The notes under the pieces: model-generated
What the model saw: the letters and a program-made list of their open reading frames with translations, nothing else
Databases searched by the model: none
Told to the model about the DNA's origin: nothing
Position numbers and translations under genes: made by a program
Shown: positions 11,969 to 44,108 of the stretch, piece by piece
Layout of the letters: each line of letters begins with the position of its first letter
How positions within the stretch are numbered: the stretch's first letter is position 1
IMG/VR virus record: IMGVR_UViG_3300029305_006221
Span: 1 to 64,000 of that record
DNA length: 64,000 bases
Source of the DNA: a virus
Strand: one strand, 5' to 3'

Positions 11969-13966
11969 TCAATTTAACATATCTAAAAGCTCCTGTTCTG
12001 TAATTATTGGTATATTTAGTTCTTTTGCTTTTTGGTTTTTACTTGAAGTAGAATTTATGTCATTGTTAACAAGGTAGTCAGTTTTTGAAGATACTGATGA
12101 TGTTACCTTGCCACCTGCGGCGGTTACTGCTGCCGAAAGTTCATCTCGATTCTTCCAGATGTGAACTCGACCTGTGACGCAGAAAGTTTTACCTTCGAGC
12201 GCATTTCCAGAATTTTCCAGTGCGCTTATTCCAGGTCCATCTTCAATCACTATAAAACCTCTGTCATACATCATATCAGCTTCTGTATAATCAAAATTAA
12301 CAATAGCATCATGCATTGCTGGGCCAAAACCATCAAGCTCCGTAAAATCCGCTCCGCTACGCATTGTTAATCTAAAGATATCATAATCATCATAAGTCTG
12401 CGCTAACTGACGCGCATAAGTTTTACCAATAAGTGGAATACTGATGGCACTCAAATACTTCTCAAGGGTCGTATGGCGCGCAGTTTCAATAGCATCTAAT
12501 ACTTTATCTACACTCTTGATTCCAAATCCAGGTTTTTCAATCCATTCTCTTCTACGCTGATGCAAATAGAATAGATCCATTATTCTTGTTACCCAACCCC
12601 AGTCAATAAGTTTCTCTAAAGTCGCTTTAGATAAGCCTTTAATATCAAGACCTTTCTTAGAACAAAAATGCTCCAAACGATTTATTAATTTTCCTTCGCA
12701 AGTATCGCTTGAACAATACAGCTCAACAGTTCCACTATCACTCTCTCTGATTTCTGTTGGCGCGCCGCAAATTGGGCATATCTTAGGCGGGAATAAGAAT
12801 TTAATTTCTGAATCATTAAGATAATAACCCGGATCCGCGCCCAATATTTCCTCAGCTTTTTGCCCCCAACTTACTTGAGGATTTATCATTAACGCCTTAT
12901 ATGTTTTTATCTTTTGTCCTACATAGGGATATTCACCAAGAATCTCGACTAAAGTGTTGATATTATGAAGACTTGCCCTTGAGCACATAGTATTTTCCAT
13001 TTCTATTTCTCGATAAATAGCAACTGGACTAAGCACTCCTGTTTTGCCCATGCTCCATTCAATATCTAATAGCTCAGTTTCATATTCTTCATCATAAAAT
13101 TTGAATGCAATCGCTGCTTTCGGATGATGTGCGGTAATGCCAGCTGCATAATATTCGCTCTTATTGTTTAGCTTAAAGACAACCCCATCAATGGGAACGC
13201 CTTCATTTTGAGCATTTAACTGAATTCCTTTGATGATTAACTCCCAGTCATTAGGGCCATTAACATAATCAACAATAGTAAACCCATAAAGAGCCAAATT
13301 CTCAAGCTGTTGGTGAAGCTCGATAGTTTCGCTTTCGTCGTCATAAATACAGTCCCATGCAATAAAGCTTAAATTTCTTTTGGCGGACTCCGCCGCATCA
13401 AGCAATCTAATACTGCCTGATGCAAAATTTCTTGAGTTAGCATATTCTTCTGCAAAAGGTGCAAAGTCTTGCGCCAAACAGACTATTTCTCCATCAACTA
13501 CAAGTCTGCCATCATGTGGAATCCACTTAGGTATATTTTTCACAACCTTAGCATTGTGCGTGATATCTTCGCCTACCTCACCATTGCCTCTTGTCGCTGC
13601 TTGAATTAAGCGTCCATCCTGATAGATAAGACGACACGATAGACCGTCACATTTAGCCATTGCAATCCATTGCTTATTTTCGAATTTATTTTCGATATCA
13701 GAAATCTCTTTTGTTTTATCAAGAGAGAGCATAGGGAAGTCTTCATCGTGCTTTACCTTTTTAAGCTCGCTTACAACTGTATATCTTATCTTTTGAGTTG
13801 GAGAGTTTGGAAGCACTTCTCCTATAGCAATTTCAAGTTCTTTAAGTTCAAGATATGCTTCATCCCAAGCAGAGTCTGAAATTGCAGGCATACCTTTATC
13901 ATATAAATCCTGATATTTATTTAGATAATCAACAAGGAAAATCATTCTTTCTTTAAGATTACTCAT
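11969..13966 (-). CDS. ligA: NAD-dependent DNA ligase (LigA-like)
   Basis: N-terminal Ia domain with the SPTQKI signature. KxDG adenylation motif (AKCDGLS). C-terminal BRCT (GKTFCVTGRV...). 665 aa. Confidence 0.8.
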   Translation of the reverse strand: MSNLKERMIFLVDYLNKYQDLYDKGMPAISDSAWDEAYLELKELEIAIGEVLPNSPTQKIRYTVVSELKKVKHDEDFPMLSLDKTKEISDIENKFENKQWIAMAKCDGLSCRLIYQDGRLIQAATRGNGEVGEDITHNAKVVKNIPKWIPHDGRLVVDGEIVCLAQDFAPFAEEYANSRNFASGSIRLLDAAESAKRNLSFIAWDCIYDDESETIELHQQLENLALYGFTIVDYVNGPNDWELIIKGIQLNAQNEGVPIDGVVFKLNNKSEYYAAGITAHHPKAAIAFKFYDEEYETELLDIEWSMGKTGVLSPVAIYREIEMENTMCSRASLHNINTLVEILGEYPYVGQKIKTYKALMINPQVSWGQKAEEILGADPGYYLNDSEIKFLFPPKICPICGAPTEIRESDSGTVELYCSSDTCEGKLINRLEHFCSKKGLDIKGLSKATLEKLIDWGWVTRIMDLFYLHQRRREWIEKPGFGIKSVDKVLDAIETARHTTLEKYLSAISIPLIGKTYARQLAQTYDDYDIFRLTMRSGADFTELDGFGPAMHDAIVNFDYTEADMMYDRGFIVIEDGPGISALENSGNALEGKTFCVTGRVHIWKNRDELSAAVTAAGGKVTSSVSSKTDYLVNNDINSTSSKNQKAKELNIPIITEQELLDMLN

Positions 13967-14828: not shown

Positions 14829-17165
14829 TTATAGTTTTATTACTGATTTAATAATGCTATTTTTAATCATTATATTACCTTGCGCCGTGCGCGCTAAAAG
14901 CGGAATTTCAGTGGCTGATATACAGATACTGTTTGGTGAACCTACTATGAGAAGGTTATCTTCATCACTGATAAGAGCTGCGCCGGACAGGTCTCCGCTT
15001 CCTATCTTTAGACCTTTACCACCCCTGCCCTGAACAGGGAATTCTTCAATCGGGGTCTTGCGCCCCATGCCATTTGCGCTAAATGTTGCAAGAGTGTCAG
15101 TCTTGTGTTTAATAGGCAATCCAGTCAAAACTTCATCACCATCATTTAACTTAATGCTCTTTACACCAGAAGTTACGCGCCCAATAGGAGAGATATCTTT
15201 CGTTTCAAAGCGAATACTCATTCCCTGCTTTGTAATGATGATAAAATCTTCTTCATTAGCAAAGGTAACAGTGGCAAGCGAGTCACCTTCCTTAAACTTA
15301 ATTGCGGCAATACCTGTTGTGCGTTTAGTTTGAAGGTATTCTTCTAACTTAGTCTTCTTAAAGAGTCCCTGCTTTGTAATAAAGATTACATATTCTGCTT
15401 GGCTCTTGCGATATAGAGATGTCATAGCTACGACTTTTTCATCTGCTTCAAGATTTATCAATGCGCCGATACGTCCACCCTTAGAAGCATTGGTTCCAGT
15501 AGGAACTTTATCTACCAAGAGACGATACATCTTACCCTTATCCGTAAAGAACATCAAGGTATCAACGGTGTTAGTAGAAATCATATCAAGGATTGCGTCA
15601 TCTGTTGTCTTTACCCCTTTGCCATTACGTCTCTGCAATTTAAAGCTACTTGAAGGCACTCTCTTAATGTCACCATTTTGCGTAGCTATTACAACACAAT
15701 CTTCAGGCACTACAGTTTCAAGTTCCTTTTCTGCTTTAGGAAGCTCAATCTGTTCAAGACTGGTTCTACGCGCATCGCCATATTTCTTGACAAATGTAGT
15801 AAGGCGCTCGCGCAATACCTCACGCTGCTTAGTTTCATTAAGGAAGAGAGTGTTTAATTCCTCAACTTCTTTGCGCAATTCTTCTGCCTCTTGATTCAAC
15901 TCAACCTTTTCAAGTCCAGCGAGCTTACCAAGCTTCATATCTACGATAGCTTTTGCCTGTGCTTCGGAGAACTTATAGGTGGCGATTAACGCATCCTTGG
16001 CGGCCGTCGCACTTGCAGATTTCTTAATGAGCGCAATAATGTTATCGATATCTTCCAATGCACGAAGAAGTCCTTCAACGATATGAAGTCTATCCTGTGC
16101 CTTTTCCAAATCAAACTGCGCTTCGTTTTGAATACAAAGCAGATTATGGTTTACATAAATCTCGCAACACTGTTTCAAATTAAGCTCTGTAGGAGTCTTA
16201 TCCACAAGCGCGACTTGGTTATACGAGAATGAGGACTGGAGATCGGTCTTTGCGAACAATTGCTTTACGATAGCGTCAGGGTTTGCGCCTTTCTCACATT
16301 CGATAACGATTCTCATACCCTTCTTATTACTCTCGTCTCTTAAATTCTCAATACCTTCAAGTTCTTTTGCATCACAGAGCTTTCCAATTTCTGCAAGAAG
16401 AGCTTCTGTTTGAACTCCATAAGGTATTTCATAAAAGACGATATTTTGCTTTTCAATATTATATCTACCACGAACCTTTACTGTTCCGTGACCTGTTTTC
16501 ATTATTGCAGGGATGTCATTTTTGTTTATTACAACACCACCTGTTGGGAAGTCAGGTCCAGGCAACATAGGCTCAGCGCCATCCATATATGCGAAAATTG
16601 CATCTGCGACTTCGGTTAAGTTGTGTGGCGCCCAGTTACAAGCAATAGCCCATCCAATACCCATATTCGGATTGCAAAGTAAGTTAGGAAACAATGCAGG
16701 AAGAGTCATAGGCTCTTCTGTTGTTTCATCATAATTGCGCATAAAACGCACATTGCGCTTCTTTAATCCTTGCAATAGTCCGTCTTCTGTAAACTTAGCA
16801 AGGCGCGCCTCAGTATAACGATAATGCGCCGGGCCGTCGCCTCCCACATTACCCATGTTTCCGTGGAAATCAATCAGCGGATATCTCATTTCCCAAGGCT
16901 GTGCAAGGCGAACAAGCGCGCCGTAGATGGAGCTATCTCCATGAGGATGGAACCTAGCCATTACATCACCGACGATATTTGCACACTTAACATGAGGCTT
17001 ATTGGAGCTTCTACCCGAATCATATGCGCCATAGATAATTCTTCTTGCAACGGGTTTCAAACCGCTTGTAGCATCTGGTATCGCGCGGTCTTCATTCACG
17101 GCGGCCGCGTACTCAATACAGTTATTTGATAACTCTTGTGTTAATTCAACTTTATTATACTCCAT
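14829..17165 (-). CDS. type II topoisomerase A subunit (GyrA/ParC-like)
   Basis: AIPDATSGLKPVARRIIYG and the catalytic Tyr region. GGAGG RBS. 778 aa from MEYNKV. Terminator hairpin at 14803-14823. Confidence 0.8.
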   Translation of the reverse strand: MEYNKVELTQELSNNCIEYAAAVNEDRAIPDATSGLKPVARRIIYGAYDSGRSSNKPHVKCANIVGDVMARFHPHGDSSIYGALVRLAQPWEMRYPLIDFHGNMGNVGGDGPAHYRYTEARLAKFTEDGLLQGLKKRNVRFMRNYDETTEEPMTLPALFPNLLCNPNMGIGWAIACNWAPHNLTEVADAIFAYMDGAEPMLPGPDFPTGGVVINKNDIPAIMKTGHGTVKVRGRYNIEKQNIVFYEIPYGVQTEALLAEIGKLCDAKELEGIENLRDESNKKGMRIVIECEKGANPDAIVKQLFAKTDLQSSFSYNQVALVDKTPTELNLKQCCEIYVNHNLLCIQNEAQFDLEKAQDRLHIVEGLLRALEDIDNIIALIKKSASATAAKDALIATYKFSEAQAKAIVDMKLGKLAGLEKVELNQEAEELRKEVEELNTLFLNETKQREVLRERLTTFVKKYGDARRTSLEQIELPKAEKELETVVPEDCVVIATQNGDIKRVPSSSFKLQRRNGKGVKTTDDAILDMISTNTVDTLMFFTDKGKMYRLLVDKVPTGTNASKGGRIGALINLEADEKVVAMTSLYRKSQAEYVIFITKQGLFKKTKLEEYLQTKRTTGIAAIKFKEGDSLATVTFANEEDFIIITKQGMSIRFETKDISPIGRVTSGVKSIKLNDGDEVLTGLPIKHKTDTLATFSANGMGRKTPIEEFPVQGRGGKGLKIGSGDLSGAALISDEDNLLIVGSPNSICISATEIPLLARTAQGNIMIKNSIIKSVIKL

Positions 17166-20159
17166 ACTTAGCCTCCTTACTGTGATCCTGAATAAATTTC
17201 TTTCTTGCTGCAACTCCTACGCCCATCAGCTGATCAAACAAAACATCTGCTTTCTTTGCTTCTTCAACCGTAACCTGATTCAACACTCTTAAGCCTGGGT
17301 CTACAAGAATTTCAGTCTCGTCCTCTGACATCTCGCCTAATCCTTTGAATCTATTGACCTGATACTTTTTTCCTCTATTTTTCTCTTGAAACTCAGCCAA
17401 CTCTTTATCGTCTCTTAAATACAGATAAGTATCTTTACCCATCGTAATCTTATAGAGCGGCGCCACAAGTGCATATACATATCCATTTTCAATTAAAGCG
17501 GGGCAAAAATTCCATATAAATGTGTAAAACAAGTTTCTAATGTGTGCCATTAAACATTAGAATTGAGTATTTCTCCTGACTATCTTTTACTCTCTGTTTG
17601 AGAGGAAACCATTTCAGCATTTAATGGACTTCGTTTCCTAAAATCCAACTGCGTACCAATAGCAGCCTTACTTCCTTGCCCAGAAGGCTTAAGGAATAGT
17701 CGATACAGGTCAAATATTAACCCATTTTTTTTCTTTTTTCTTGTAAATAGGAAGGTTATCATAATAACGACCCCATAAAATCATTTGGAAAGTTTGATAA
17801 GCGACTCTGTTTTTATAATCTTCATAAATTTGCTTCGCAGTTTCATTAATATAACGAGTGCGAATAGCAATAATTTCTTCATCTGTAAAATGAGCATCTT
17901 TACCTTTTGAGCCACGGCTATTTTCATAGATGTAATAATCTTTATTCTCTTTGGTAAAAACCTCGGGCATAATGTGTGCCCAAGTTCTACCCTGCCAAAC
18001 AGATTGAAAGTTACTAAAAGTAGTTTTATCTTTAAATAATTCATATACATCTTTTTGGCGAAGATGCTTAGCGTATGCTTTACGAATTATCATAACATCT
18101 TCTTCGTTTAATTTTGCATTACCATTTAAAGAACCAACAGATGCTTGTTCTCCTCCGGGATTACAATTGTATCCATTTGGATAACTTTTATAATAAGCAA
18201 TCCAATACTGTTCTCTTTCATTTAATTGCTCTAATGAACATTCTTCTAATATCTCAAAATCAAAAGCTTCAGTTCCATATAAACCAATAGCTACGTCTAC
18301 TGGGATATCGGTTCTATCTCCTCTTTTATGCTCAGAGAAGCGCCTTTTTATATCATTAGTTTGTCCAATATAACACTTTCCATTAGATTTTTTAGTAATT
18401 TTATAAATTCCTATCATAATATATCTCCTTTTTGTATTTGGAGATAAGAGTTAATAAATGTTCCCACGGGATTACCAATACTCAGGCTTCCCCGTTAGCA
18501 TTGAAAAATTCTTATCTCTGTTCTATTATTATATGAAAATCGTACTAATCACATATTCTAATTTTAACCAAAAATTTTAAATTTTTCAATACCCTGCTGG
18601 TTAGCAGTAAAGTTTTTCATCGGCGCAACTTAAACTCGTTCACCGTCTGCATCCGCATCGGCAGCTATAATAATCTTCCCATAGCGCAGTGAGTCTTTAT
18701 CATACGTTAGCTTCATTGTTTTCGGATCGGTTTTAAGACCAAAGGCTTCAATCATAGTCATAATTTCTGCATTCTTTTGAATTTTATCTAAGGCTGCTTT
18801 TTGCGTATTTAATATCTTTCCGCGCACGGGCAGCACTGCTTGAAACTCATTATCGCGGGCAGCTTTCATATTGCCGGAGGCGCTATCGCCTTCCGTCACG
18901 TAAATTTCACAGTTAGCGCGAACCTTTGAATAACAGTCTGCTAATTTTGAATCAAACTTAAGCGCCTTTTCCTTTTTCTTTTTATCGCCTCGAGCCGCGT
19001 CGCGCGCCTTTTTAGCAGCTTCTCTTGCTTTCCTTGCAGATAAGGCTTTTTCAATAATTGTTTTAAAGGCATTTTTATAAGAAGATGTTAAATCTCCAAG
19101 AGCTTGAGTTGTTAGCTTCTGCGCATAAGTTCTACCTTCAGAAGAACTAAGCTCCTCTTTATTTTGTCCTTTAAAAACAGGATCAATCATCTTAAAGTTT
19201 AGAATTAAAATCATACCTTCTTCATAGTCTGAACCAGTAAGATTTTCTTCTTTTTCTTTAATTAACTTATTTTCTCTTGCAAAATTATTTAATCCCATTG
19301 TCCAAGCTGTTTTAAAACCTGTCAAATGAGTTCCTTTTTCTTGGGGAATATTGTTTGTATATAGTTTAATAACAGAAGAATAAGATTTACTATATCCAAT
19401 AGCAACCTCGAGTTGAAACTTACCTTCTTCGCTATTGAAGTAGAAAGGATCAGCTATAAACTCTCCTTTTGGATTTAAATAATCCATATAATCTGCAAGT
19501 CCGCGCTCAGAATAGAAATCTTCTTTTGTATCTAAAACGGTATAAATAAAATGTAGCCCTTTGCATAAAAAGCTAAATTCTCGAATCATATCTCGAATAC
19601 CTTTAATATCAAACTCTACTGTTTCAAGGACTTCTGGGTCAGGATAGAATTCAACAGAAGTTCCAGTGATCGATTTGTCAATTTTATTCTCTTTATGAGA
19701 AATAAATTGACCTCTTGAAAATTCTACGATTTCTTCAATGCCTTCGCGGCGGGTTTTTACAATCATAGATTTAGATAAAGCATTTACAGCCTTACCTCCA
19801 GTTCCGTGTTCTCCGCCAGAAGTATTATATCCAGATTCTCCAGTAGCATTATCAAATTTACCGCCAGTATTTGCAATACCAAAACAAGCTTGAAGCACAC
19901 TACAACCACTTGGATGTTTACCATGCGGAATGCCGCGCCCATTATCTTCTATGCGAATACCATTGTTTGGTAAAATAGTTACTTTTATTTGATTACCAGC
20001 TCCATTTAAATATTCATCAATACTATTAGAAATTATCTCTTTTACACAATGAAGTAATCCTTTTGCATCCTTACTTCCTATATACATACCGGGATACTTT
20101 CGGATATGCTCAAAGTAATCAAGAGATTTAATATTATCTGCTTGATAATTTTGTGTCAT
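17155..20159 (-). CDS. type II topoisomerase B subunit (GyrB-like), split by a group I intron. Exon 1 is 20159..18642. Exon 2 is 17547..17155.
   Basis: Exon 1 carries the GHKL ATPase (YIGS, NGRGIP) and TOPRIM EGDSA. It ends ...IIIAADADADG. Exon 2 starts AHIRNLFYTF...KGLGEM. The join recreates the conserved DxDxDG-HIR block. Confidence 0.75.
17548..18641 (-). mobile_element. group I intron (about 1094 nt) in the gyrB-like gene, carrying a GIY-YIG homing endonuclease
   Basis: U before the 5' splice site (GGU|GAA). G before exon 2 (..UUUAAUG|GCACAC). Structured GC-richer 3' region at 17580-17700. Confidence 0.6.
17710..18417 (-). CDS. GIY-YIG homing endonuclease (I-TevI-like), intron-encoded
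   Basis: MIGIYKITKKSNGKCYIGQTNDIKRRFSEHKRG. 235 aa. Confidence 0.75.
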   Translation of the reverse strand: MIGIYKITKKSNGKCYIGQTNDIKRRFSEHKRGDRTDIPVDVAIGLYGTEAFDFEILEECSLEQLNEREQYWIAYYKSYPNGYNCNPGGEQASVGSLNGNAKLNEEDVMIIRKAYAKHLRQKDVYELFKDKTTFSNFQSVWQGRTWAHIMPEVFTKENKDYYIYENSRGSKGKDAHFTDEEIIAIRTRYINETAKQIYEDYKNRVAYQTFQMILWGRYYDNLPIYKKKEKKWVNI

Positions 20160-21519: not shown

Positions 21520-21595
21520 TGGCGGCGGAGGTGAGATTCGAACTCACGCATATGCACTTTTAGAGAGTGCCGCCTTCCCGCTTGGCTACTCCGCA
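21520..21595 (-). tRNA. amber suppressor tRNA, anticodon CUA, tRNA-Gln-like D-arm
   Basis: Cloverleaf folds. Anticodon loop is CU-CUA-AA. D-arm AGCCAAGCGGGAAGGC matches the tRNA-Gln D-arm. T-arm is GUGAG/UUCGAAU/CUCAC. CCA is encoded. Own promoter (21625-21653) and terminator (21489-21510). Confidence 0.8.
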
Positions 21596-23924: not shown

Positions 23925-24353
23925 TTAAACCTCTTTAAAGCTTTTACGATTTGCATTAGCCGCATCAAAATTCTTTATTTTTTCATAATAAAGAGATTTT
24001 AGAGTAATAATTCTATCTGCCCAATAACAACGCTTATTACGAGCATCATCAACAGCTATGCGCATTTTCTTTACCCAAAACGCGTCCTGATCATAAGTGC
24101 GAGTTGCAGACATCTCTCTCCAAAACTGAGTAAGTGCCTTTAGACGATCATTCCAATGTCTTCGCTGAGCTCGGCAATATTCAATCTCAGCCTTCATTTC
24201 AGCAAGCTCAAAGCCGAAATATCTTGATTCGTTATAATAATCTTCTTCTTTGCATTGAACGGCGCCTGTAAATTGCCCCATATTGGTTCCTATTGTTACA
24301 ATATAGGCGTGCTGTGCTTCATCGTGAAGTGTTTCTATAAGAGTATGTTTCAT
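23925..24353 (-). CDS. hypothetical protein
   Basis: 142-aa ORF. Confidence 0.4.
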   Translation of the reverse strand: MKHTLIETLHDEAQHAYIVTIGTNMGQFTGAVQCKEEDYYNESRYFGFELAEMKAEIEYCRAQRRHWNDRLKALTQFWREMSATRTYDQDAFWVKKMRIAVDDARNKRCYWADRIITLKSLYYEKIKNFDAANANRKSFKEV

Positions 24354-24451
24354 ATTAGTTATCTCCTTCTATCCAATTATTTATTAATCTTTCGATTTCA
24401 AATCTATTTGTTATAATCCACTCCCAAATAGGAGCTATAATGTGTATCATA

Positions 24452-25015
24452 TTAGTCATTATCAAGCATCTCCTCACATTTATTCATTTCTGCTCTGATA
24501 TCTTCGAGAACTTGATCAAGAGAAACAGGGTATCCGTCATGACTATCCACTCCTACGTGATACATCCAAGGATCTCCTTTATAAAAGTTAGATGTCTGAT
24601 GAAGGTGACCATATAAGTTCACTACAACCTGCCAGAGTTCTTTCTCCTTAAGGTTGTGAGTAATAGTAGGATAATGTGAAAGATAAAAGTTGATTTTCTT
24701 ATATTTTAGGCGCGCGCAAAGCTGCACATCCCAGCCCATATCGCGATAAGCCTGCTCTCTCCTTGAAGTATCGTGATTTCCGAGACAAACATGAATTTTA
24801 CCTTTAAGCTGCTTAAGAAGCGCTAGGCCGCCTTCAATGTCGCCAAGAACGAGATCTCCAAGAATCCATACTTCGTCTTCGTCAGATACCACAGAATTGA
24901 ATTTCTCAATCTGCTTAATATTCATTTCATTTACATCTGCATAGCCTCGGGCGCCCCAAATAAATTCGCGGTCATGCCCCAGATGCAGATCCGACGTGAT
25001 CCAAATCTTACTCAT
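24452..25015 (-). CDS. calcineurin-like metallophosphoesterase (polynucleotide 2',3'/3'-phosphatase candidate)
   Basis: SDLHLGH, GDLVLGD, GNHD, GHLH motifs. Stop overlaps the kinase gene start. Confidence 0.7.
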   Translation of the reverse strand: MSKIWITSDLHLGHDREFIWGARGYADVNEMNIKQIEKFNSVVSDEDEVWILGDLVLGDIEGGLALLKQLKGKIHVCLGNHDTSRREQAYRDMGWDVQLCARLKYKKINFYLSHYPTITHNLKEKELWQVVVNLYGHLHQTSNFYKGDPWMYHVGVDSHDGYPVSLDQVLEDIRAEMNKCEEMLDND

Positions 25016-25476
25016 TACTCTTCCTCCTTTATAACAGTTATTTTATTAAACCCCTCTGCCTCTTCAGGCATCTCCATTGTGAAAAACATACGGCGGATAA
25101 TACCATGCTTAACCCAAGCGCGCCCTTCGCGTTGGTCATTTCTTTTAAATGCAGTTTCTACACTTGTATCGAGTACCACTGCCTCAATTTCATCTGCAAA
25201 CTTACGCACTTTATCAAGCACTCTTGCGCGTGATTTTTTATTAAGATGAGTAGCATCTGCTATTGTTACTTCATCTGCTACAAGGCTACCGATAATTTGA
25301 CGAATAAACTTATCAAAAACTTCATCTTCGTAGTCAAAGTATTCGCCGCCTCTTTCATCAAGTGATTCAAAACGGATTGCATCTCTTGATACAGGTGTTA
25401 TATCTGGAAAATTATTTTTAATATAGGTCGACTTACCCGATCCTGGAATACCTACCATCATAATCAATTTACTCAT
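25015..25476 (-). CDS. P-loop polynucleotide kinase-like protein
   Basis: Walker A GIPGSGKST. AAA_33/Pnk-kinase-like length of 153 aa. Confidence 0.6.
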   Translation of the reverse strand: MSKLIMMVGIPGSGKSTYIKNNFPDITPVSRDAIRFESLDERGGEYFDYEDEVFDKFIRQIIGSLVADEVTIADATHLNKKSRARVLDKVRKFADEIEAVVLDTSVETAFKRNDQREGRAWVKHGIIRRMFFTMEMPEEAEGFNKITVIKEEE

Positions 25477-25797
25477 TTAGTTCCTCCAATTTATATATAC
25501 CGTTATTTTTACTATTGCTCCCATAAGTTCATCGGTTCCTATTTCTGCATTATATCCGAGTAAAACTAAAAACTTTTTTAACTCATCTTGAAAAAGATGC
25601 ATATCAACACCCTGTTCCATCAGTGTATTAGCAGCCCAAAAATAACTACAGGTATAAGTGCCAACCTCTGCGGCTGCAATAATTCTCGGAGCAATAAATT
25701 CTTCCCATTCAGCTTCGACAACTTCTCTTGCTCTTTGTCTTTTATTTGTATTTATTTTGTTTGCTATTTCTCTTACCGTTTTTGCATCTGTAAACAT
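25477..25797 (-). CDS. hypothetical protein
   Basis: 106-aa ORF. Promoter at 25831-25859. Confidence 0.4.
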   Translation of the reverse strand: MFTDAKTVREIANKINTNKRQRAREVVEAEWEEFIAPRIIAAAEVGTYTCSYFWAANTLMEQGVDMHLFQDELKKFLVLLGYNAEIGTDELMGAIVKITVYINWRN

Positions 25798-25830
25798 CTT
25801 ATTTTCTCTCTTTCATTTCTTTTATAATTT

Positions 25831-25859
25831 ATTATAACATAATTTTTATAAAAAATCAA
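25831..25859 (-). promoter_or_regulatory. sigma70-type promoter, class A (TTGATT-N17-TGTTATAAT), for the kinase/phosphatase operon
   Basis: Motif read directly. Confidence 0.6.
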
Positions 25860-25860
25860 A

Positions 25861-25886
25861 AAAGCCACATAGTCGTGGCTTTTTTA
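25861..25886. terminator. bidirectional hairpin terminator after the RNA ligase gene
   Basis: GCCACAUAGUCGUGGC hairpin flanked by A-runs and T-runs. Confidence 0.55.
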
Positions 25887-25889
25887 TTT

Positions 25890-26105
25890 TTATTCTTCTG
25901 TTACTTCAACTTCTTGTGCTTCTTCTACATCGGGAGCAGTTGCTTCAGCTTTAACCAGCCCCTCTAAGCATTTGAAACTAAAATTTTTATGTTTAAATGC
26001 GGCGAACTTAGGCCTATTAACAATACGAACCACTACGCCTTCGCGCACATGGGTCTTGCCTATCGGATCGGGACCATCATAAAACTGCTCTGCCTTAAAA
26101 CCCAT
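25890..26105 (-). CDS. RNA ligase C-terminal segment (motifs IV/V) in the -1 frame relative to 26060..27295
   Basis: EGVVVRIVN (motif IV) and FKHKNFSFK (motif V) with an acidic tail. Overlaps the upstream ORF by 46 nt. Confidence 0.45.
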   Translation of the reverse strand: MGFKAEQFYDGPDPIGKTHVREGVVVRIVNRPKFAAFKHKNFSFKCLEGLVKAEATAPDVEEAQEVEVTEE

Positions 26106-27295
26106 TCACCCGCAGAAATAGTAGGATCGTCTGCTGACGCGCAGTGGTCAGGAATAATACCTTTCCACATTACAGGAACGGTTTTTACTCCCATCTGTTC
26201 ACAGCGATAACGCATGAAGTCAGGAGTATACTCAACTACATCACCATCCTCGTTAGTCATAGTCATACGGTAGATATAGATATCTGACTGAGGGACTTCC
26301 ACAGAAATAGAAAAAACTCCATTATCATCATTGCCATACATTGTCTTTAAACCATCAGGAGCGCATCCATAAGAAAAACGAGTAGTTTCACCATACTGTT
26401 TAATAAAATCTTTATCATTTAGCTTTTTATTATTTGCATCTCCCATAATAGGCTTTCCATCGGTTGTAAAACCAACTACCTCGTAGTAAATAGTCTCGCC
26501 CTTCCAAAGTTTTCCTTCAAAAGTCTTTGAATGTTTTTCTCTAAACTCATTAGAGCCATAAAACCCACCTTCATAATCTTCAAGAACTACGCGGCGGGTG
26601 CCAGAAACACCGCCCCAGTCATATATAGGAGTACCTTCTTTTCGAGTGATCTTATCCCAAAGGCTACGCTTGTATCCTTTTAGAGTAGGCAGATAACCAG
26701 TTCTCTGACTAGTGCCATGTAGCTTAAGCGTGATCTCAATCTCGTCACCAGGCTTAAAAGCGCCAAGGTTATAAGCTAACTGCTCAGTGTCAGCATGCTC
26801 CTTGAACAAAGGCGCGGTAGAGACCTTCTTCTTACGAGTTCTGTTTCCATCTGATACATAACCGCGACGAGTATTAGAACGAGGAATATACTTGCAACAA
26901 ATCTCGTGTCCATTAACAAGACCTTCGATTATATCTCCCTCTTTAAGATGCGCGGCGGCTGCCTCATCTTCGAAGCAATAGTCGAGCGCAGATAAAGGAA
27001 GGAAAATACCATCTGATTTCTCTCCGCGCAAACGAATAGCGGTTATATTGCGTTTGTCAGGATCCATGTAGCCACCTATATTCACTCCATTTTCGTCTTT
27101 CTTACGAAGTAGATTATTATGTTTAGCAAATTCTACTGATACCTGACCATCGGTAGGTAGATAGATACCAAGCTGTCCCTCTTTATAATCAAGAGAGACG
27201 CATATAGTATTTCCAAAACAGTCTGCAAGAAGCAGTCTATCTGCATTGGGATGAGGGCGCACATTTTTAAGTGTAGTTATATAAGCCTTATACAT
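26060..27295 (-). CDS. RNA ligase (Rnl2-like), N-terminal part: tRNA-binding (Trbp111/Myf-like) domain plus adenylyltransferase motif I. The ORF ends at a TAG and continues in the -1 frame.
   Basis: N-terminal VRPHPNADRLLLADCFGNTICVS. Motif I KLHGTS (KxHG). 411 aa. Confidence 0.55.
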   Translation of the reverse strand: MYKAYITTLKNVRPHPNADRLLLADCFGNTICVSLDYKEGQLGIYLPTDGQVSVEFAKHNNLLRKKDENGVNIGGYMDPDKRNITAIRLRGEKSDGIFLPLSALDYCFEDEAAAAHLKEGDIIEGLVNGHEICCKYIPRSNTRRGYVSDGNRTRKKKVSTAPLFKEHADTEQLAYNLGAFKPGDEIEITLKLHGTSQRTGYLPTLKGYKRSLWDKITRKEGTPIYDWGGVSGTRRVVLEDYEGGFYGSNEFREKHSKTFEGKLWKGETIYYEVVGFTTDGKPIMGDANNKKLNDKDFIKQYGETTRFSYGCAPDGLKTMYGNDDNGVFSISVEVPQSDIYIYRMTMTNEDGDVVEYTPDFMRYRCEQMGVKTVPVMWKGIIPDHCASADDPTISAGEWVLRQSSFMMVPIR

Positions 27296-27319
27296 TTCTA
27301 TTCTCCTTTTATCTCTTTT

Positions 27320-27547
27320 TTATTCTTTCCAAAACCAACTATTAGGATTACTACATTTATTAACATACTTACATGTTGCATAACAACTGAAAAATGTTGC
27401 TATCATACAGCCAATTACAACGCTCCATACTGGAAGATCAAATAGATAAAAAAAACTAACGCCAATTAAAACAGGCGCACTAGCTGCTATTATAGCGCCT
27501 ATGATTGCTACTAAAAATAATTTACAATATATCTTAAAAGATATCAT
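27320..27547 (-). CDS. small membrane protein
   Basis: Two hydrophobic helices. The ATG lies 1 nt after the sigma-factor stop, with a GGAGG RBS. Confidence 0.4.
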   Translation of the reverse strand: MISFKIYCKLFLVAIIGAIIAASAPVLIGVSFFYLFDLPVWSVVIGCMIATFFSCYATCKYVNKCSNPNSWFWKE

Positions 27548-27548
27548 A

Positions 27549-28445
27549 TTAAGCCTCCAAAAATTCTCTAAGCGCATTGGCGCGCATTGGATTACGAAGT
27601 TTCTTAAGTGCTTTTTCTTCAATTTGTCTTATACGCTCTTTAGAGAGTCCATAAAAATTACCTACTTCTTCAAGAGTCTGAGGATGTCCTGTTTCGAAGC
27701 CATACCTACGGCGCAAAACGTCGGCTTCGCGCGCCTCAAGAGTCTCTAATACAGTATCAATCTTTTTGCTAACCTCTTGTCTATAAAGGTTTTCAATAGG
27801 ATGTTCTATTGAGTCATCTGCAATTAAATCTCCAATAGTGCCATCATCTTCATCATTAAATGTTTGATCAATAGAAACAGGGTCTTTAATTATAGATTGA
27901 AGCTCTCGCACTTTATTCTCTTCTATTTCCATTCTGCGCGAGATTTCACTTATAGTAGGTTCACGGTGAAGTTCTTGAAAAAGTTCATTAGTGACTCGAC
28001 TAAGTTTACTAAGCTGCTCTATAACATGAGCAGGAACTCGAACAAAACGAGATTGTTCAACAACTACTTTTGAGATTGCTTGTCTTATCCACCAAGTAGC
28101 ATAGGTTGAAAATCTATAGCCAAGACTATAATCCCACTTATCAACAGCTGTCATAAGTCCGATATTTCCCTCTTGAATAAGATCAAGTAGCGGAATCTTA
28201 GAGCGATGGGTATATTTCTTTGCGATGCTTACAACTAGGCGCAAATTAGCGTTTATAAGTGCTTCACGGGCGCTCTTATCTCCTTCTTTTATTAAGGCTC
28301 CAAGATGTTGCTCTTCTTCTGCTGTTAAAAGAGGGGTTTTACTAATTGATTTTAAATAGGCGCGAGTCGCTTCCATTACAAAACCAACATTTTCTTCTCC
28401 ATAAATTTCTGTTTCATTTTCTAAAGTCATTACGTTATCATTCAT
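27549..28445 (-). CDS. sigma-70 family RNA polymerase sigma factor
   Basis: Regions 2.1-2.4 ([40 protein letters not shown]) and 4.2 ([20 protein letters not shown]). 298 aa. Confidence 0.85.
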
Positions 28446-28493
28446 ATTATCTCTCTCTTTTCTATTTTATTTTTATTTTTTTTTAAGTATAAT

Positions 28494-28522
28494 ATTATAA
28501 CATAATTTTTTTAGAAAGTCAA
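28494..28522 (-). promoter_or_regulatory. sigma70-type promoter, class A (TTGACT-N17-TGTTATAAT), upstream of the sigma factor gene
   Basis: Motif read directly. Confidence 0.6.
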
Positions 28523-39940: not shown

Positions 39941-40461
39941 ATATAAGTGGCAGTAAGTTGCCAGCCGCGTATTGCTTTTCCTTATGGTTCCATTTGCTCT
40001 ACCAAGAGTTGGATTACTCCAACGAAAATAGAAACTTTAAGTGGATCGGCGTTGCCTCTATTCCACTTTTCCGCGTTGTCGACTTACGCTTAACCGTTTT
40101 ACTTTTTATCTGCGTCCAGACCTGCTTATTGCTTACAGGTGTTTCTATATAGATGCACGCATCTTTGGGCAATCCAAATTATGGCGGCGTGCCAGCCTCT
40201 GGCGGAGAGCTGAGGTGTCGATCCCCATACGGGTACTAGCCGTACCAACCGTTTTCAAGACGGTGTTGCGAGCCGTCGCAATTAACCCTCCATATAAAGC
40301 AGAGGTTATCGTACTCTGCGCAGTCCCATATGGCGCCTTGTAAAGACTGCAACGATTCGACTATTCGCTATCGACAAACGCTACTTCTGATTGTGGATGG
40401 TCCACCAATACGCTTCCAACTTAGGGAGTTTCACCTTTTATGTCGCCGCATTAACGACAGC

Positions 40462-40553
40462 TGGCAGCGAGGGTGAGACTTGAACTCACACACCGATTAC
40501 TCGATTACTGGTAGGTTAGCAACCTACTGCCTTACCAATTAGGCTTACCCCAC
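40462..40553 (-). tRNA. class-II tRNA-like gene (Ser GCU-like anticodon arm), atypical. The acceptor pairing is unresolved and may indicate a pseudogene.
   Basis: Anticodon arm GUAGG-UUGCUAA-CCUAC. The variable arm contains a tandem AGUAAUCG repeat. T-arm GUGAG/UUCAAGU/CUCAC. 3' ..GCCA. Confidence 0.35.
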
Positions 40554-40873
40554 TATAAGTGATAAGCTGCGCCAACATACGCCCTTATCTTGTCACTGTG
40601 TTTTACAACCCGTCAGTGAGCCAGTTGTTGGGTTTTTCCCTCTGCGTAATGTTGGGCGCTTTTGGGGAGTTGTCCTTCTCCTGTTAAGGCATTCGCTCTA
40701 AGCTGCTCTTACTTAGTGGGGCCGCTTTATTCCCATACCTTATGTATTGTGTGTTCCACTTGCGTTTTCTCTTCTTAATCGGTTTACACACAACCTTCCA
40801 CTTGAAGCGCCACTAATTTATATACCGAATCTGGCTTTCATCGGTGAGTATGATATCGATCCCTTTAAGGGAC

Positions 40874-40961
40874 TGGTGGGGGAGATGAGATTCGAACTCA
40901 CAGCGTTTCTAATGTACGCGATTTTAAGTCGCGGGCGTCTCGCCAATTCCGCCACTCCCCC
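40874..40961 (-). tRNA. tRNA-Leu (UAA), class II
   Basis: Acceptor GGGGGAG/CUCCCCC-A-CCA. Anticodon arm CGCGA-CUUAAAA-UCGCG. Long variable arm. Confidence 0.7.
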
Positions 40962-40990
40962 GTGTCGCCTCATAGTGAGGCTTTTGCGCC

Positions 40991-41335
40991 TTAACAGACG
41001 CGAACAAAATGATACATCATTGGATGATGAGTATCTGCAAAAGACATATCTCCAAAAGCATTTTCAAATTCTTTATCAATAGCATCTGTTTCATATTCAA
41101 ACCAACAGATAGCGTCTATTGAGTCAAGATCAATTTCTCGACCAAGAGTGACTCCAAAATAGTAATCACCATAGTTGCCATAGGCATTATCTGTGATAAA
41201 TGAGTACTTGTCAGTTCCATCGTACTTATCGCAGAACTCTTCTATGAACTTACCTGTTTCTTCCTCAAGGCGCTTAATTTCACTTTTAGATATTTTATAT
41301 CCATAAATTAAAACTGACTCATAATCAACACTCAT
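40991..41335 (-). CDS. hypothetical acidic protein inside the tRNA island
   Basis: Start MSVDYESV. Promoter at about 41365-41400. Confidence 0.4.
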   Translation of the reverse strand: MSVDYESVLIYGYKISKSEIKRLEEETGKFIEEFCDKYDGTDKYSFITDNAYGNYGDYYFGVTLGREIDLDSIDAICWFEYETDAIDKEFENAFGDMSFADTHHPMMYHFVRVC

Positions 41336-41431
41336 TTTTTCTTTTTTCCTCTCTTTCATCTTACATATATATTATATCATAAATTTTTGTAAAAATCAAA
41401 GAAGTTTCATAGTAATTGATTAAAATTTCAT

Positions 41432-41520
41432 TGGTGGGCGATGAGGGAATCAAACCCACTCGAGTCACAATGACGCTAGATTTACAGTCTAACCCGCCTA
41501 TCTTAACGGTTTAATCGCCC
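41432..41520 (-). tRNA. tRNA-Tyr (GUA), class II
   Basis: Acceptor GGGCGAU/AUCGCCC-A-CCA. Anticodon loop CU-GUA-AA. Variable arm stem GUCA/UGAC. Confidence 0.65.
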
Positions 41521-41587
41521 ATATAAAATAACTTTAGGTCAGTCAACCACACATCTATTTTAACCTCGACATTTGTTCTCTGAGGAC

Positions 41588-41677
41588 TGGAGCAAGATGC
41601 TGGAATCGAACCAGCATTAATGGAGTATATAACCCGTCCCTATAACAGGCGCGTATAACCTATTCCGCCAATCTTGC
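41588..41677 (-). tRNA. tRNA-Leu (UAG)-like, class II, A33 in anticodon loop
   Basis: Acceptor GCAAGAU/AUCUUGC-U-CCA. T-arm GCUGG/UUCGAUU/CCAGC. Anticodon arm CCUGU-UAUAGGG-ACGGG (one G-U pair). 17-nt variable region. Confidence 0.45.
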
Positions 41678-42001
41678 ATATAAAATGAGGCGCCAGTGCA
41701 TGCTACAGCCAAGCCGGCAGTTACCCATCGCCGCCTCTCTTGGATTTATGGGTGCGGATATCGGTACTGCCCCGATCACCCTGAGCTTATGAGGCTCTGG
41801 TGAGCACTATGCCCATCCGCGATATAAAGTGAGAGTTTACAGTACCCTCGGAACCTTATCCCAACTTCCCATTAAGTACAGCCAAGTTGGCACTGTACGC
41901 CTGATTTTTATTTATACTCCCACTCGGACAGGAGTGGCGCGACCTTAAGAGATTAACTCTTCCCCATCGGCGCTCTTATTAGTTGATGGGCGGCATTAAT
42001 A

Positions 42002-42076
42002 TGGTGAAGCTTGAAGGAATTGAACCTTCGCCTAAGCGCTGAGAACGCCTCGTTGTAACCACTTAACTAAAGCTCC
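42002..42076 (-). tRNA. tRNA-Glu (CUC)
   Basis: Anticodon loop UU-CUC-AG. Acceptor GGAGCUU/AAGCUUC-A-CCA. Confidence 0.6.
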
Positions 42077-42126
42077 ATATGAGGGACAGTAATTTCGATT
42101 ACGCGCTGTACCTCTGACCGCGTTTC

Positions 42127-42203
42127 TGGTGATGCCGACAGGATTCGAACCTGCGAATATAGGGATGAAAACCCTAGGAGTTAAACCACTTCTCAACGGC
42201 ACC
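42127..42203 (-). tRNA. tRNA-Glu (UUC)
   Basis: Anticodon arm UAGGG-UUUUCAU-CCCUA. Acceptor GGUGCCG/CGGCAUC-A-CCA. Confidence 0.65.
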
Positions 42204-42416
42204 GCATGCCTTGATGCATTTAACGCTCATCAAGTAGCGTGGTGTTTTCTCTCGGATTACTCCCTAACCGCCCTTTGATTATGCCACCTCGCAACTCACA
42301 AACGGGTAATTTGTTGCGCCATATCTTCATTAAATACCCTACACCGTCACTCCATCAACGGCGGGTTTATCTAAACGATTTTACTAATATAGGATTATCG
42401 TGAACCTATACATAAG

Positions 42417-42490
42417 AGGGACTTAACGGACTCGAACCGTTGCCACATAGCTTATCCATTCTACTGCTCTACCATCTGAGCTAAGGTCCC
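42417..42490 (-). tRNA. tRNA-like gene, atypical: the anticodon stem cannot be paired and there is no CCA. May be a pseudogene.
   Basis: Good acceptor, D-arm (GCUC/GAGC) and T-arm (AACGG/UUCGAGU/CCGUU), but the central UGGAUAA loop region lacks a stem. Confidence 0.3.
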
Positions 42491-42905
42491 ATATTCCAAG
42501 GGGTTCGTATCGCGGTTATCCCCACCGCGTGTGTACACAAGCATTTTCAGACTCCTAACGGTTGTCTACTGATGCTTACAGGTATTTCCCGCCTTTATTC
42601 ACCCACTTTTGCAATTCGCTTGCAGGTTGGAGAACAAAAGTAAATGCAGCTCCTATGCGGAGGGTTCTCTCTCTTTCACACCCACAACGTCAGCTCCGTC
42701 ACGAGGAAGCCACGCTCATTTTTTCATAGGAGTTGAGTATTCTCCCAATGTCACGCAGACCTCATGCAGTCCTTGCGACTATACCAAGCGTAGTTGTCTT
42801 TCAGACTTTCACGGGACTACGCAACTCCGTTCACTTTTTGCTTCTTTGCTTTTCTATTGTATATATATTATATCATATTTTTTTAATAAAATCAATAGAG
42901 AATGA

Positions 42906-43124
42906 TTAAACGATAATAAAATCGCTTATATTTCGATAAATATCATTCTCTGCTTCGCACCAGAGTTCATCAAACTCCATTGCATAAAGTGCGCCAAGCA
43001 ATGATTTTGCATTAACCTTAAGCCCCGCTCCATCGGTGATATGAACTGCGCCTTCCATCTTAGTTGTGATGTTAACAAACTCTTGAACATCACGCATTGT
43101 ATCAAGTCTTATTTTTGCTTTCAT
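42906..43124 (-). CDS. small HPr-like (phosphocarrier-fold) protein (tentative)
   Basis: VNAKSLLGALYAMEF resembles the HPr VNLKSIMGVMSLG segment. 72 aa from MKAKIRLD. Confidence 0.3.
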   Translation of the reverse strand: MKAKIRLDTMRDVQEFVNITTKMEGAVHITDGAGLKVNAKSLLGALYAMEFDELWCEAENDIYRNISDFIIV

Positions 43125-43247
43125 TTTTTTTTCTTTTCTTCCTCTCTCATTATTACATATATATATTATATCATATTTTTTTATAAAAATCAATAATTGC
43201 GCAAGAAATTACTTTTAAATGCCTTAAGATATGGATTAAAATGTTTT

Positions 43248-43322
43248 TGGCAGGGGACCTAGGATTCGAACCCAGACCAAGCGGGTTGGAGCCGCGTATG
43301 CTAGCCGTTACACCAATCCCCT
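43248..43322 (-). tRNA. tRNA-Trp (CCA)
   Basis: Anticodon loop CU-CCA-AC. Acceptor AGGGGAU/GUCCCCU-G-CCA. Confidence 0.65.
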
Positions 43323-43329
43323 ATATCTC

Positions 43330-43575
43330 TCATAAAACCTCCCACCAAAACTCAGAAATTTTACGATATCTTCCTTTGCTGCCTAAATCGCCTTTATAGC
43401 GACGGACAGCGCGATTACATTTTCGCTTAACAAAGCGAACTCGCTCTGGCATTTGATATCTGCGATAAATACCTTTTTCTTCATCATAGTAAACACCTTT
43501 ACCATACCAAGTTTTGGTTTGGGAATAACAGTGTTTATCTCGTCTTCTTTGGTCTCTACTTCTTTTCCAACCCAT
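43330..43575 (-). CDS. small highly basic protein
   Basis: 81 aa, Arg/Lys-rich, between tRNA genes. Confidence 0.3.
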   Translation of the reverse strand: MGWKRSRDQRRRDKHCYSQTKTWYGKGVYYDEEKGIYRRYQMPERVRFVKRKCNRAVRRYKGDLGSKGRYRKISEFWWEVL

Positions 43576-43654
43576 AAGCCTCTCCTTTCTGAGTGGGTAT
43601 TATTATATTAAAATTTCTTTTAATACTTTAATTACTTTTGAAAAAATTTTTACC

Positions 43655-43807
43655 CTAATCTTCCATAGAGCGACAGTCGTGCGCCTTTTCACGCTTGCGA
43701 TTATGTTTCTTCTTACTTTCAATTACTCTTGTATGCAGAGAGGGCGAGTTGCGCATTCTTTCTTTACGCATAGCTTGAGTCTCTTTTGCTTCAAGCGGCT
43801 TTTTATT
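43655..43807 (-). CDS. small highly basic protein
   Basis: Start MSNKKPLEAK. Arg/Lys-rich. Confidence 0.3.
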   Translation of the reverse strand, partial: NKKPLEAKETQAMRKERMRNSPSLHTRVIESKKKHNRKREKAHDCRSMED

Positions 43808-43906
43808 ACTCATTTCCTCTCTCCTTTTGTTTATTAACACAAACTCGACCACACGCGTCCCACCGTCCTGTTTCATACGCCTAAGCCTTGTCCGTCGGTT
43901 GTGTAT

Positions 43907-43981
43907 TGGCACGGGATAAAGGAATCGAACCCTTGTCTTGGCGTCCGTAGCGCCACGTTCTGTCCATTAAACTAATCCCGC
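43907..43981 (-). tRNA. tRNA-Arg (ACG)
   Basis: Anticodon arm UGGCG-CUACGGA-CGCCA. CCA encoded. Confidence 0.7.
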
Positions 43982-44108
43982 ATAAAAATGCAAAGGTATC
44001 TAAGGCGATTCTGATAGAGTTGTCCTTTGCTAGTGTTTTTATCTCTATGTTTAAACACTTCTTTCAGTCTTTATATAAACCCGAATAGAGATGAGGTTTA
44101 TATCGCAT

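Follow-up and report, generated by a model that had tools for sequence, protein, structure and literature searches.

Phage RNA repair has been surveyed as sets of ATP-dependent RNA ligases, polynucleotide kinases, and HAD, calcineurin-like or HD phosphatases that are found alongside tRNA arrays (PMC7824862), and Bacillus phage relatives of the locus described here have likewise been interpreted in terms of RNA repair (PMC9703825). Among the ligases, the Rnl5 type, represented by NgrRnl and DraRnl, has as its defining feature an OB domain at the N-terminus ahead of a nucleotidyltransferase (NTase) domain at the C-terminus, and is already known in phages (PMC5397189, PMC4408790, PMC7261155). The OB domain of NgrRnl promotes adenylylation of the ligase, and ligation by the Rnl5 enzymes tested by mutagenesis depended on the glutamate of motif IV and the lysine of motif V (PMC7261155); the physiological functions of the family were called uncharted in 2017 (PMC5397189). 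As for end healing, HD-Pnk is a characterized 2',3'-phosphoesterase/5'-kinase that clusters with a ligase (PMC6097658). Here, we describe a gene cassette of a large, uncultivated phage, in IMG/VR virus record IMGVR_UViG_3300029305_006221, of which positions 1 to 64,000 were analyzed; this whole stretch of 64,000 nucleotides is called the window. The cassette encodes an RNA ligase, a kinase, a phosphoesterase and a small conserved protein, and belongs to an already known kind of system, in that phage RNA repair as an answer to tRNA-cleaving host defenses, Rnl5 ligases in phages, and Pnk kinases with HD or calcineurin-like phosphatases have all been described.

The explanation that we favor, with a probability of roughly 0.6, is that the cassette serves to heal and seal the ends of broken nucleic acids, RNA being the most likely one, and that its ligase is broken in this strain, the sealing step being probably lost or strongly reduced. 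The features of the locus are as follows.

27549 to 28445, minus strand: sigma-70-type factor, by family search
25890 to 27295, minus strand: gene for an Rnl5-type ATP-dependent RNA ligase, interrupted by a frameshift (conceptual product, 468 amino acids)
26060 to 27295, minus strand: frame-0 open reading frame (ORF) of the ligase, 411 amino acids, with the OB domain and motifs I (K191-L-H-G) and III (E272); stop codon TAG
25890 to 26105, minus strand: overlapping ORF in the -1 frame, 71 amino acids, with ligase motifs IV (E419-G-V-V-V) and V (K435-H-K437)
26093 to 26104, minus strand: frameshift site UGG GUU UUA AGG, located by comparison of the frames and by DNA comparison with intact relatives
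25857 to 25886, minus strand: intrinsic-terminator-like hairpin with a T-run, directly 3' of the ligase stop codon
25831 to 25859, minus strand: sigma-70-like promoter match (TTGATT, 17 nucleotides, TATAAT, TG-extended -10), a consensus match only
25477 to 25797, minus strand: conserved 106-residue protein of unassigned function, between ligase and kinase
25015 to 25476, minus strand: predicted polynucleotide 5'-OH kinase, 153 amino acids, with an upstream GGAGG Shine-Dalgarno sequence
24452 to 25015, minus strand: small binuclear metallophosphoesterase, 187 amino acids; from its context, a predicted 2',3'-phosphate end-healing enzyme
36151 to 44349, minus strand: array of 20 tRNA genes (ARAGORN), outside the cassette proper but context for a possible role in protecting translation

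Comparison with described repair systems

The cassette resembles several described systems in part. Like the Pnkp of Clostridium thermocellum (CthPnkp, of the Pnkp-Hen1 system), it would provide a 5' kinase, a binuclear metallophosphoesterase and an ATP-dependent ligase, all of them predicted activities on the phage side, and the two kinases are homologous. However, CthPnkp is one polypeptide, whereas the phage has three separate genes and the additional 106-residue gene; moreover, the phage phosphoesterase is not of the lambda-phosphatase type, and the phage ligase is Rnl5-like and not Rnl4-like. No Hen1 partner was seen among the neighboring genes examined. In T4, Pnkp and Rnl1 counter the PrrC anticodon nuclease, and the likeness here is that of a phage-encoded heal-and-seal system, which extends to a related contig, L016, where an Rnl1-type ligase lies beside the same kinase and phosphoesterase; in contrast, T4 Pnkp fuses its kinase to a DxDxT (HAD) phosphatase, whereas in the window the metallophosphoesterase is separate and the ligase is Rnl5-type. 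In the clusters of HD-Pnk with ligase (Runella slithyformis; gp157/gp158 of phage PBC2), the gene downstream of the ligase is that of a Pnk kinase paired with a metal-dependent 2',3' phosphoesterase, an order and a predicted activity that recur here, but the HD domain is fused to the kinase there and a stand-alone calcineurin-like enzyme takes its place here.

An earlier note on this DNA, made from the sequence without database searches, had regarded the cassette as a split Pnkp-type healing and sealing module. The homologous kinase and the identical set of predicted activities speak for this description, but the phosphoesterase and the ligase come from other clades. As homology to Pnkp is confined to the kinase, ‘split Pnkp’ describes a likeness and not a descent, and it is by analogy that the cassette may be said to work like Pnkp or like the T4 pair of Pnkp and Rnl1. 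Overall, the observations of the earlier note were partly confirmed and its interpretation was partly supported, as indicated with the individual results.

The ligase is of the Rnl5 type

The conceptual 468-residue ligase consists of an N-terminal OB domain (about residues 1-135) and a C-terminal NTase domain, and its short motifs are located at residues 15-21 (HPNADRL), K191 (KLHG), 419-423 (EGVVV) and 435-437 (KHK). In sequence space the family comprises 2315 clusters at 50% identity that reach an E value of 1e-3 or better. K191, E272, E419 and K435/K437, along with G420, were invariant in alignments of 42 and 60 sequences, the last four positions (E419, G420, K435, K437) being invariant in all 60 homologues of the larger one. 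Although a search of the PDB with the fused ligase as a single sequence returned nothing meaningful, the family profile built from 42 sequences retrieved NgrRnl (5COT) as the best match (9e-9), spanning the OB domain through motif I, as compared with 0.013 for T4 Rnl2 (2HVQ) and faint matches to the tRNA-binding OB domains of PheRS-beta and MetRS-C.

The predicted structure gave the same ranking by Foldseek. The top 13 matches were all NgrRnl, over the full length, with E values of 1e-16 to 1e-18 and target-normalized template modeling (TM) scores of 0.66-0.70, whereas for REL1 and Rnl2 the alignment was limited to the NTase core, with E values of about 1e-7 and target-normalized TM scores of 0.37-0.52; the ligase domain of CthPnkp followed at 0.035-0.13 (3TY8, 0.035). 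The order of domains agrees with this ranking, because Rnl2 has its NTase domain first and an Rnl2-specific C-terminal domain thereafter, an order that is reversed in the phage ligase. The Rnl2-type assignment in the earlier note was therefore abandoned: the ligase is Rnl5-type (NgrRnl/DraRnl), and neither Rnl2 nor Pnkp-type. Its best relatives are RNA ligases, not members of a DNA ligase or capping family, and the DNA ligase of the phage is a separate gene at 11969-13966.

The N-terminal domain had been read as a Trbp111/Myf-type tRNA-binding domain, and what remains of this reading is the HPNADRL motif and a resemblance at the level of the fold, since Foldseek matched the OB domains of MetRS-C and EMAPII-like proteins to the ligase N-terminus; no sequence match to the Pfam tRNA_bind family was obtained. 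The domain is the signature OB domain of Rnl5 and not a newly acquired tRNA-binding module.

With the Rnl5 enzymes the phage ligase shares the N-terminal OB and C-terminal NTase domains without a C-terminal accessory domain, and it also shares their catalytic residues, namely the motif I lysine (in KxHG/KxDG), the glutamates of motifs III and IV, and the motif V lysine, with the distinction that motifs IV and V lie in another frame than motif I in the window. It differs in being about 130 residues longer (468 versus 339-342 amino acids), in an identity of about 15% to NgrRnl, in the histidine of its motif I where NgrRnl has Asp172, and in the frameshift ahead of motif IV in this strain. Consistent with such divergence, NCBIfam TIGR02306 (RNA_lig_DRB0094, the DraRnl equivalog) scored 48.4 bits with the intact orthologue P0002, against a cut-off of 151, and covered the N-terminal half only; the window ligase itself fell just under the Pfam cut-offs (PF09414, 23.8 versus 27; PF21189, 21.3 versus 27). 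On sequence grounds, the clade thus appears to be a divergent, enlarged Rnl5-like subfamily (phrog_968).

In five homologues (P0124, P0131, P0134, P0142 and P0150), the protein is about 790-813 amino acids long and the match is split by an insertion of some 350 residues past motif I, conceivably an intein or an inserted homing endonuclease.

A frameshift interrupts the ligase gene

KLHG, EGVVV and KHK are all present, as the earlier note had reported; what it had overlooked is that they are split over two frames, KLHG being encoded in 26060-27295 (411 amino acids), and EGVVV and KHK in 25890-26105 in the -1 frame. A single 468-residue ligase was obtained only by imposing a -1 shift at GUU_UUA_AGG (26101-26093), equivalent to regaining one lost base (T or A), which yields the junction ...EWVLKAEQFYDG... 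in the product. Compared with intact orthologues, the window reads as though one base (T or A) were missing in TTTTAAGG, within a linker of variable length; in DNA comparison, the reading frames of L008, L010 and L012 were intact at this site. In terms of spelling, TTTTAAGG is the deletion form, and an admixture of TTTTTAAGG or TTTTAAAGG would mean polymorphism.

Several results indicate that the two frames encode parts of one protein. The fused product matched phrog_968 from end to end (E 4e-63), and aligned in one piece with the uninterrupted ligase of Bacillus phage PBC2 (residues 2-451, 49% identity). Its AlphaFold2 (AF2) model was one coherent fold with a predicted local distance difference test score (pLDDT) of 91.9, and of about 88-93 across the junction.

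The distribution of the lesion is narrow. An identical 411-residue product (P0001) is found on six Joint Genome Institute (JGI) contigs, and in all four of the contigs that were read (L004-L007), each from a different and separately assembled sample, the arrangement of 411-residue and 71-residue ORFs is the same. These contigs differ from the window by 0-3 single-nucleotide polymorphisms (SNPs; 99.9-100% identity) and, from this near-identity, appear to represent a single young lineage. Outside it, all 80 related IMG/VR loci examined (61-78% identity) lacked the frameshift, and all 119 other homologues among the matches listed (71-80% identical) were intact, with lengths of 451-494 amino acids. 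Exact-pattern scans for the site, allowing 0 or 1 extra base, recovered no match in viral_contigs or metagenome_contigs, two collections that evidently exclude L004-L007, so that the scans are silent on the intact allele; the same pattern did match the window itself.

Identity to intact orthologues is 77-91% in the C-terminal segment that is out of frame and 75-80% upstream of it; because the segment is as well conserved as the part preceding it, the lesion is likely to be recent. By placing motifs IV and V out of frame, the one-base deletion probably abolished or strongly reduced the sealing step, and the 411-residue product is probably inactive as a ligase, since the motif IV glutamate and motif V lysine were required in the Rnl5 enzymes tested. 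Within the explanation that we favor, the ligase gene of this strain is thus fairly probably a very recent pseudogene, and its loss points to recent decay of the cassette.

Two other routes to the C-terminal motifs were considered and rejected. Independent translation of the 71-residue ORF is unlikely, in that a GGTGA abuts its ATG without spacing and no other Shine-Dalgarno sequence is present, whereas the neighboring genes have a well-spaced GGAGG. Read-through of the TAG by the phage tRNA with a CTA anticodon would not restore motifs IV and V, as they lie in another frame.

The kinase and the phosphoesterase

The 153-residue protein carries the P-loop GIPGSGKST that had been recognized earlier, and matches AAA_33 with an E value of 6.5e-16. 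In the PDB its best match was the kinase domain of CthPnkp (4GP7; 7e-7), followed by PSTK, Pnkp1 and T4 Pnk, and the NCBIfam model of bacterial Pnkp (TIGR04075, bacter_Pnkp) aligned over its positions 10-157 of 851 at 2.6e-14. K15, S16, D32, R35, T76, R112, R116 and R119 align with K21, S22, D38, R41, T80, R116, R120 and R123 of CthPnk, in which the roles of these residues, including Asp38 as general base, have been described (PMC3902929). The P-loop lysine and serine, the aspartate general base with its orienting arginine, the acceptor-binding threonine and the lid arginines of this kinase clade were thus all found, so that none of the residues essential in CthPnk is missing, and these matches identify the protein as a predicted polynucleotide 5'-OH kinase and not a nucleotide kinase.

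The third enzyme had been described as a calcineurin-like phosphoesterase with GDxxDRG and GNHD motifs. The class and the GNHD motif were confirmed, with a Metallophos_2 match at 4e-11 (43.5 bits against a cut-off of 27) and a phrog_547 match at 3e-42, but GDxxDRG is absent, motif II being GDLVLGD. All five binuclear metallophosphoesterase motifs (DxH, GD, GNH(D/E), H and GHxH) were located, as D9-x-H11, G53-D54, G79-N80-H81-D82, H114 and G136-H137-x-H139, and were invariant in 33 homologues. The AF2 model had a pLDDT of 94.1. The nearest solved structure was that of AQ_1665 of Aquifex (1XM7), itself without an assigned function (profile E value 9e-9, TM score 0.70); a profile was needed to find it, a single-sequence search of the PDB having given no match. 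MJ0936, PptH, Vps29, Rv0805 and LpxH came next, and predicted viral structures with this fold were labeled COG4186 or putative phosphoesterase. The enzyme thus belongs to a small phage clade that has no characterized member and lies outside the lambda-phosphatase/Pnkp clade.

Gene neighborhoods in related phages

The neighborhood was surveyed in the 80 related IMG/VR loci, the kinase being sought within 5 kb of the ligase. A kinase homologue was found in 58 of them, downstream of the ligase in all but one. It was a stand-alone kinase in 18 loci, followed directly by this phosphoesterase in 16 and situated at the end of the fetched locus in the other 2. In 40 loci the kinase ORF was longer (289-313 amino acids), and a C-terminal HD phosphohydrolase domain was detected in five of the six that were tested. 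The closest cultured ligase homologue, that of PBC2, is likewise followed by a kinase-HD fusion. The strongest evidence at hand for the role of the phosphoesterase is this exchange, in which either an HD domain or the metallophosphoesterase accompanies the same kinase.

Gene order is also shared in detail. Among the close relatives, L008 presents a sigma factor, the ligase, a tube-like gene, the kinase and the phosphoesterase in this order, with L010 and L017 similar, and the kinase is immediately preceded by a homologue of the 106-residue protein in L010 (33% identity, E 1e-17), L016 and L017. Kinase and phosphoesterase also lie side by side in L014, L015 and L016, which are more distant contigs. 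In the syntenic L016, the order is sigma factor, PF09511 ligase, 106-residue homologue, kinase, 99-residue ORF, phosphoesterase, DUF5662 and RNase H, so that a T4 Rnl1-type ligase (PF09511, 5e-18; 2723-3865) occupies the ligase slot. This is a non-orthologous replacement of the ligase, and it links the module with the RNA-repair pathway classically known from phages. A megablast search with 24000-28500 against GenBank phages gave no match, and hence there is no close cultured relative.

The tube-like gene encodes a YomU-like tail-tube protein (PF27173, about 257 amino acids) and is positioned between ligase and kinase in L008 (5499-6272) and L010 (5543-6319). The corresponding gap of the window has no tail-tube gene, and contains the terminator and the promoter-like match.

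Organization of the locus

All three enzyme genes are co-directional on the minus strand at 24452-27295, exactly where they had been placed before, but they are not all adjacent, as the conserved 106-residue gene sits between ligase and kinase. In the direction of transcription, the sigma-70-type factor is followed by a small hydrophobic ORF, the ligase region, the terminator/promoter-like stretch, the 106-residue ORF, the kinase and the phosphoesterase; 3' of the latter are a 142-residue ORF without an assigned function, the DUF5662 protein and RNase H. No family match was found for the 106-residue and 142-residue ORFs in Pfam, PHROGs or NCBIfam.

The stop codon of the 106-residue ORF abuts the ATG of the kinase, the kinase stop and the phosphoesterase start overlap as TAATG, and GGAGG-type Shine-Dalgarno sequences precede both starts (AGGAGG in the case of the phosphoesterase). 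On account of these abutting and overlapping codons and Shine-Dalgarno sequences, the three genes are taken as one tightly coupled unit, to which the ligase is an adjacent gene, terminated separately. The promoter-like match precedes the three coupled genes and overlaps the terminator-like hairpin; it is to be noted that the number of promoter matches in the region did not exceed the expectation from shuffled sequence.

The 106-residue gene is polymorphic at 25716, where the window has GAA (Glu28) and contigs L004, L005 and L006 have a TAA stop, i.e., three of the four related contigs that were read carry a nonsense allele, which is compatible with relaxed selection on the cassette.

Function of the cassette and alternative explanations

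In the mechanism that we propose, the small metallophosphoesterase would strip the 2',3' phosphate and leave a 3'-OH, the Pnk-type kinase would move a phosphate from a nucleoside triphosphate onto the 5'-OH with Asp32 as the general base, and the Rnl5-type ligase, adenylylated on Lys191, would join the 3'-OH to the 5'-phosphate. The kinase, the phosphoesterase and the conserved 106-residue protein would act from their tightly coupled operon, with the ligase just upstream under its own terminator. A heal-and-seal role of this kind had been suggested in the earlier note, and the comparison of gene neighborhoods supports it.

A number of observations weigh against this explanation. No kinase was found within 5 kb of the ligase in 22 of the 80 loci, and in the window a terminator lies between the ligase and the kinase operon. 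The 2',3'-phosphatase role of the phosphoesterase is deduced from its context, namely the coupling to the kinase and the HD swap. Characterized Rnl5 enzymes seal duplex nicks, and DraRnl contributes to radiation resistance (PMC5397189), for which reasons a DNA or RNA:DNA substrate is possible. Finally, the out-of-frame C-terminal part of the ligase shows no decay, and AGG, the codon at the frameshift site, is rare in the neighboring genes (3 AGG versus 20 AGA).

The last two observations are those expected if the cassette were fully functional and regulated by ribosomes that shift -1 at GUU_UUA_AGG, with the rare AGG pending in the A site and tRNA-Leu(UAA) slipping off UUA to pair with UUU, so that a fixed, small proportion of the product would be full-length ligase. 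A shift of exactly -1 on a U-run is what would be required, a weak Shine-Dalgarno-like GGUGA is present about 6 nucleotides upstream, the downstream frame is open without further lesions and conserved like the upstream part, and the allele persists in several samples. However, the hallmarks of a programmed -1 frameshift are missing: the sequence at the site (G_GUU_UUA) is not an X_XXY_YYZ slippery heptamer, re-pairing in the P site (GUU to GGU) would be poor, the 95 nucleotides downstream fold no better than shuffled sequence (z-score +0.66), and the shift is not conserved in any of the 80 relatives or 119 other homologues mentioned above. The persistence in several samples, in turn, reflects one young lineage, given the near-identity of its contigs. 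Slippage of this kind is accordingly quite improbable in our estimate. That the frameshift is a sequencing or assembly artifact, the gene being intact in the real phage, is very improbable indeed. The site is a short homopolymer context (T4 then A2), but a run of four Ts is not error-prone for short-read data, and one arrangement is common to the window and six JGI contigs, of which the four that were read were assembled separately and differ elsewhere by SNPs.

A different question is whether the enzymes repair DNA or RNA:DNA junctions, in replication or after attack by host nucleases, and not tRNA; nicks with 3'-phosphate and 5'-OH ends would then be healed, and nicks with a ribonucleotide 3' end sealed. 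Such a role would suit the Mn-dependent sealing by Rnl5 ligases of duplex nicks with a 3'-OH RNA strand, the protection by DraRnl against ionizing radiation, where it speeds genome reassembly (PMC5397189), and the description of HD-Pnk as a DNA/RNA end-healing enzyme (PMC6097658). It would also suit the location of the cassette in a region of replication and repair genes (RNase H, pyrimidine-dimer glycosylase, gyrase, DnaB and DNA ligase), and a weak match of the phosphoesterase to the ligase-associated PdeM model (E 4e-5). Against it, the closest relatives of the kinase are RNA-repair kinases, the phage has 22 tRNA genes, calcineurin-like and HD phosphatases are established participants in phage RNA repair (PMC7824862), and T4 RNA ligase and polynucleotide kinase reverse the cleavage of tRNA-Lys by PrrC (as summarized in PMC9703825), an Rnl1-type ligase of the T4 kind being the one that occupies the slot in L016. 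By analogy, this replacement favors an RNA substrate over nicked RNA:DNA or DNA. Furthermore, since the phage has its own NAD-dependent DNA ligase, the RNA ligase would not be needed to seal DNA in replication. We therefore regard a DNA or hybrid substrate as unlikely, and the healing and sealing of RNA ends, with a ligase broken in this strain, as the preferred explanation.

A bolder proposal, offered tentatively and somewhat doubtful as a whole, is that the enlarged Rnl5-like ligases of this phage clade are dedicated tRNA-repair ligases, in which the OB domain recognizes broken tRNAs, the Pnk kinase, the COG4186 metallophosphoesterase and the 106-residue protein serve as partners, the last as an adaptor, the slot is interchangeable with a T4-type Rnl1, and full-length ligase in this strain arises by low-level -1 slippage. 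If true, broken tRNA would be the first natural RNA substrate for the Rnl5 family, and the COG4186 phage phosphoesterases would gain their first function. The shared slot (Rnl5-like or Rnl1) and the choice of partner (HD or COG4186) offer a way to assign substrates to Rnl5 ligases and to small phage metallophosphoesterases. The frameshifted allele, for its part, would be a natural experiment indicating that phages in circulation can lose their sealing enzyme; it also calls for caution in annotation, as a reading at the level of motifs would call the ligase intact.

tRNA genes and other features of the window

ARAGORN located 22 tRNA genes in the window, and not 21 as counted before: 20 in 36151-44349, one at 21520-21595 and one at 57013-57082. 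The tRNA at 21520-21595 (minus strand) has a CTA, i.e., amber-reading, anticodon and was labeled tRNA-Pyl by ARAGORN. TAG terminates only one of the 42 minus-strand ORFs of at least 120 amino acids, and the tail-tube-like gene of L008 (5499-6272) contains two in-frame TAG codons, while a screen of the whole window for TAG recoding disclosed no convincing in-frame TAG in long ORFs. Amber suppression or reassignment of TAG may operate in this phage clade. Inside the array, at 42416-42490 (minus strand), ARAGORN called a tRNA with a four-base anticodon (ggat) and assigned it no identity; it could be a miscall, a tRNA with an unusual anticodon loop, or one resembling a frameshift suppressor.

The replication genes, all on the minus strand, encode the NAD-dependent DNA ligase (11969-13966), gyrase A (14829-17213), gyrase B (18630-20159) and a DnaB-type helicase (3066-4610); the gyrase B ORF, of 509 amino acids, ends inside the Toprim domain. 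The use of Shine-Dalgarno sequences and the Bacillus phage relatives hint at a host among the Bacillota.

An 830-residue protein encoded at 30265-32757 (minus strand) has the shoulder and repeat domains of major vault protein, and its only relatives among GenBank phages, at 40% identity, are in uncultured huge phages of 462-735 kb (LR756500, LR756501 and LR756503). Lastly, GC and AT skew switch sign at 50001-54000 (+0.26 to +0.32, versus about -0.1 elsewhere), which points either to a run of genes encoded on the other strand or to an insertion.

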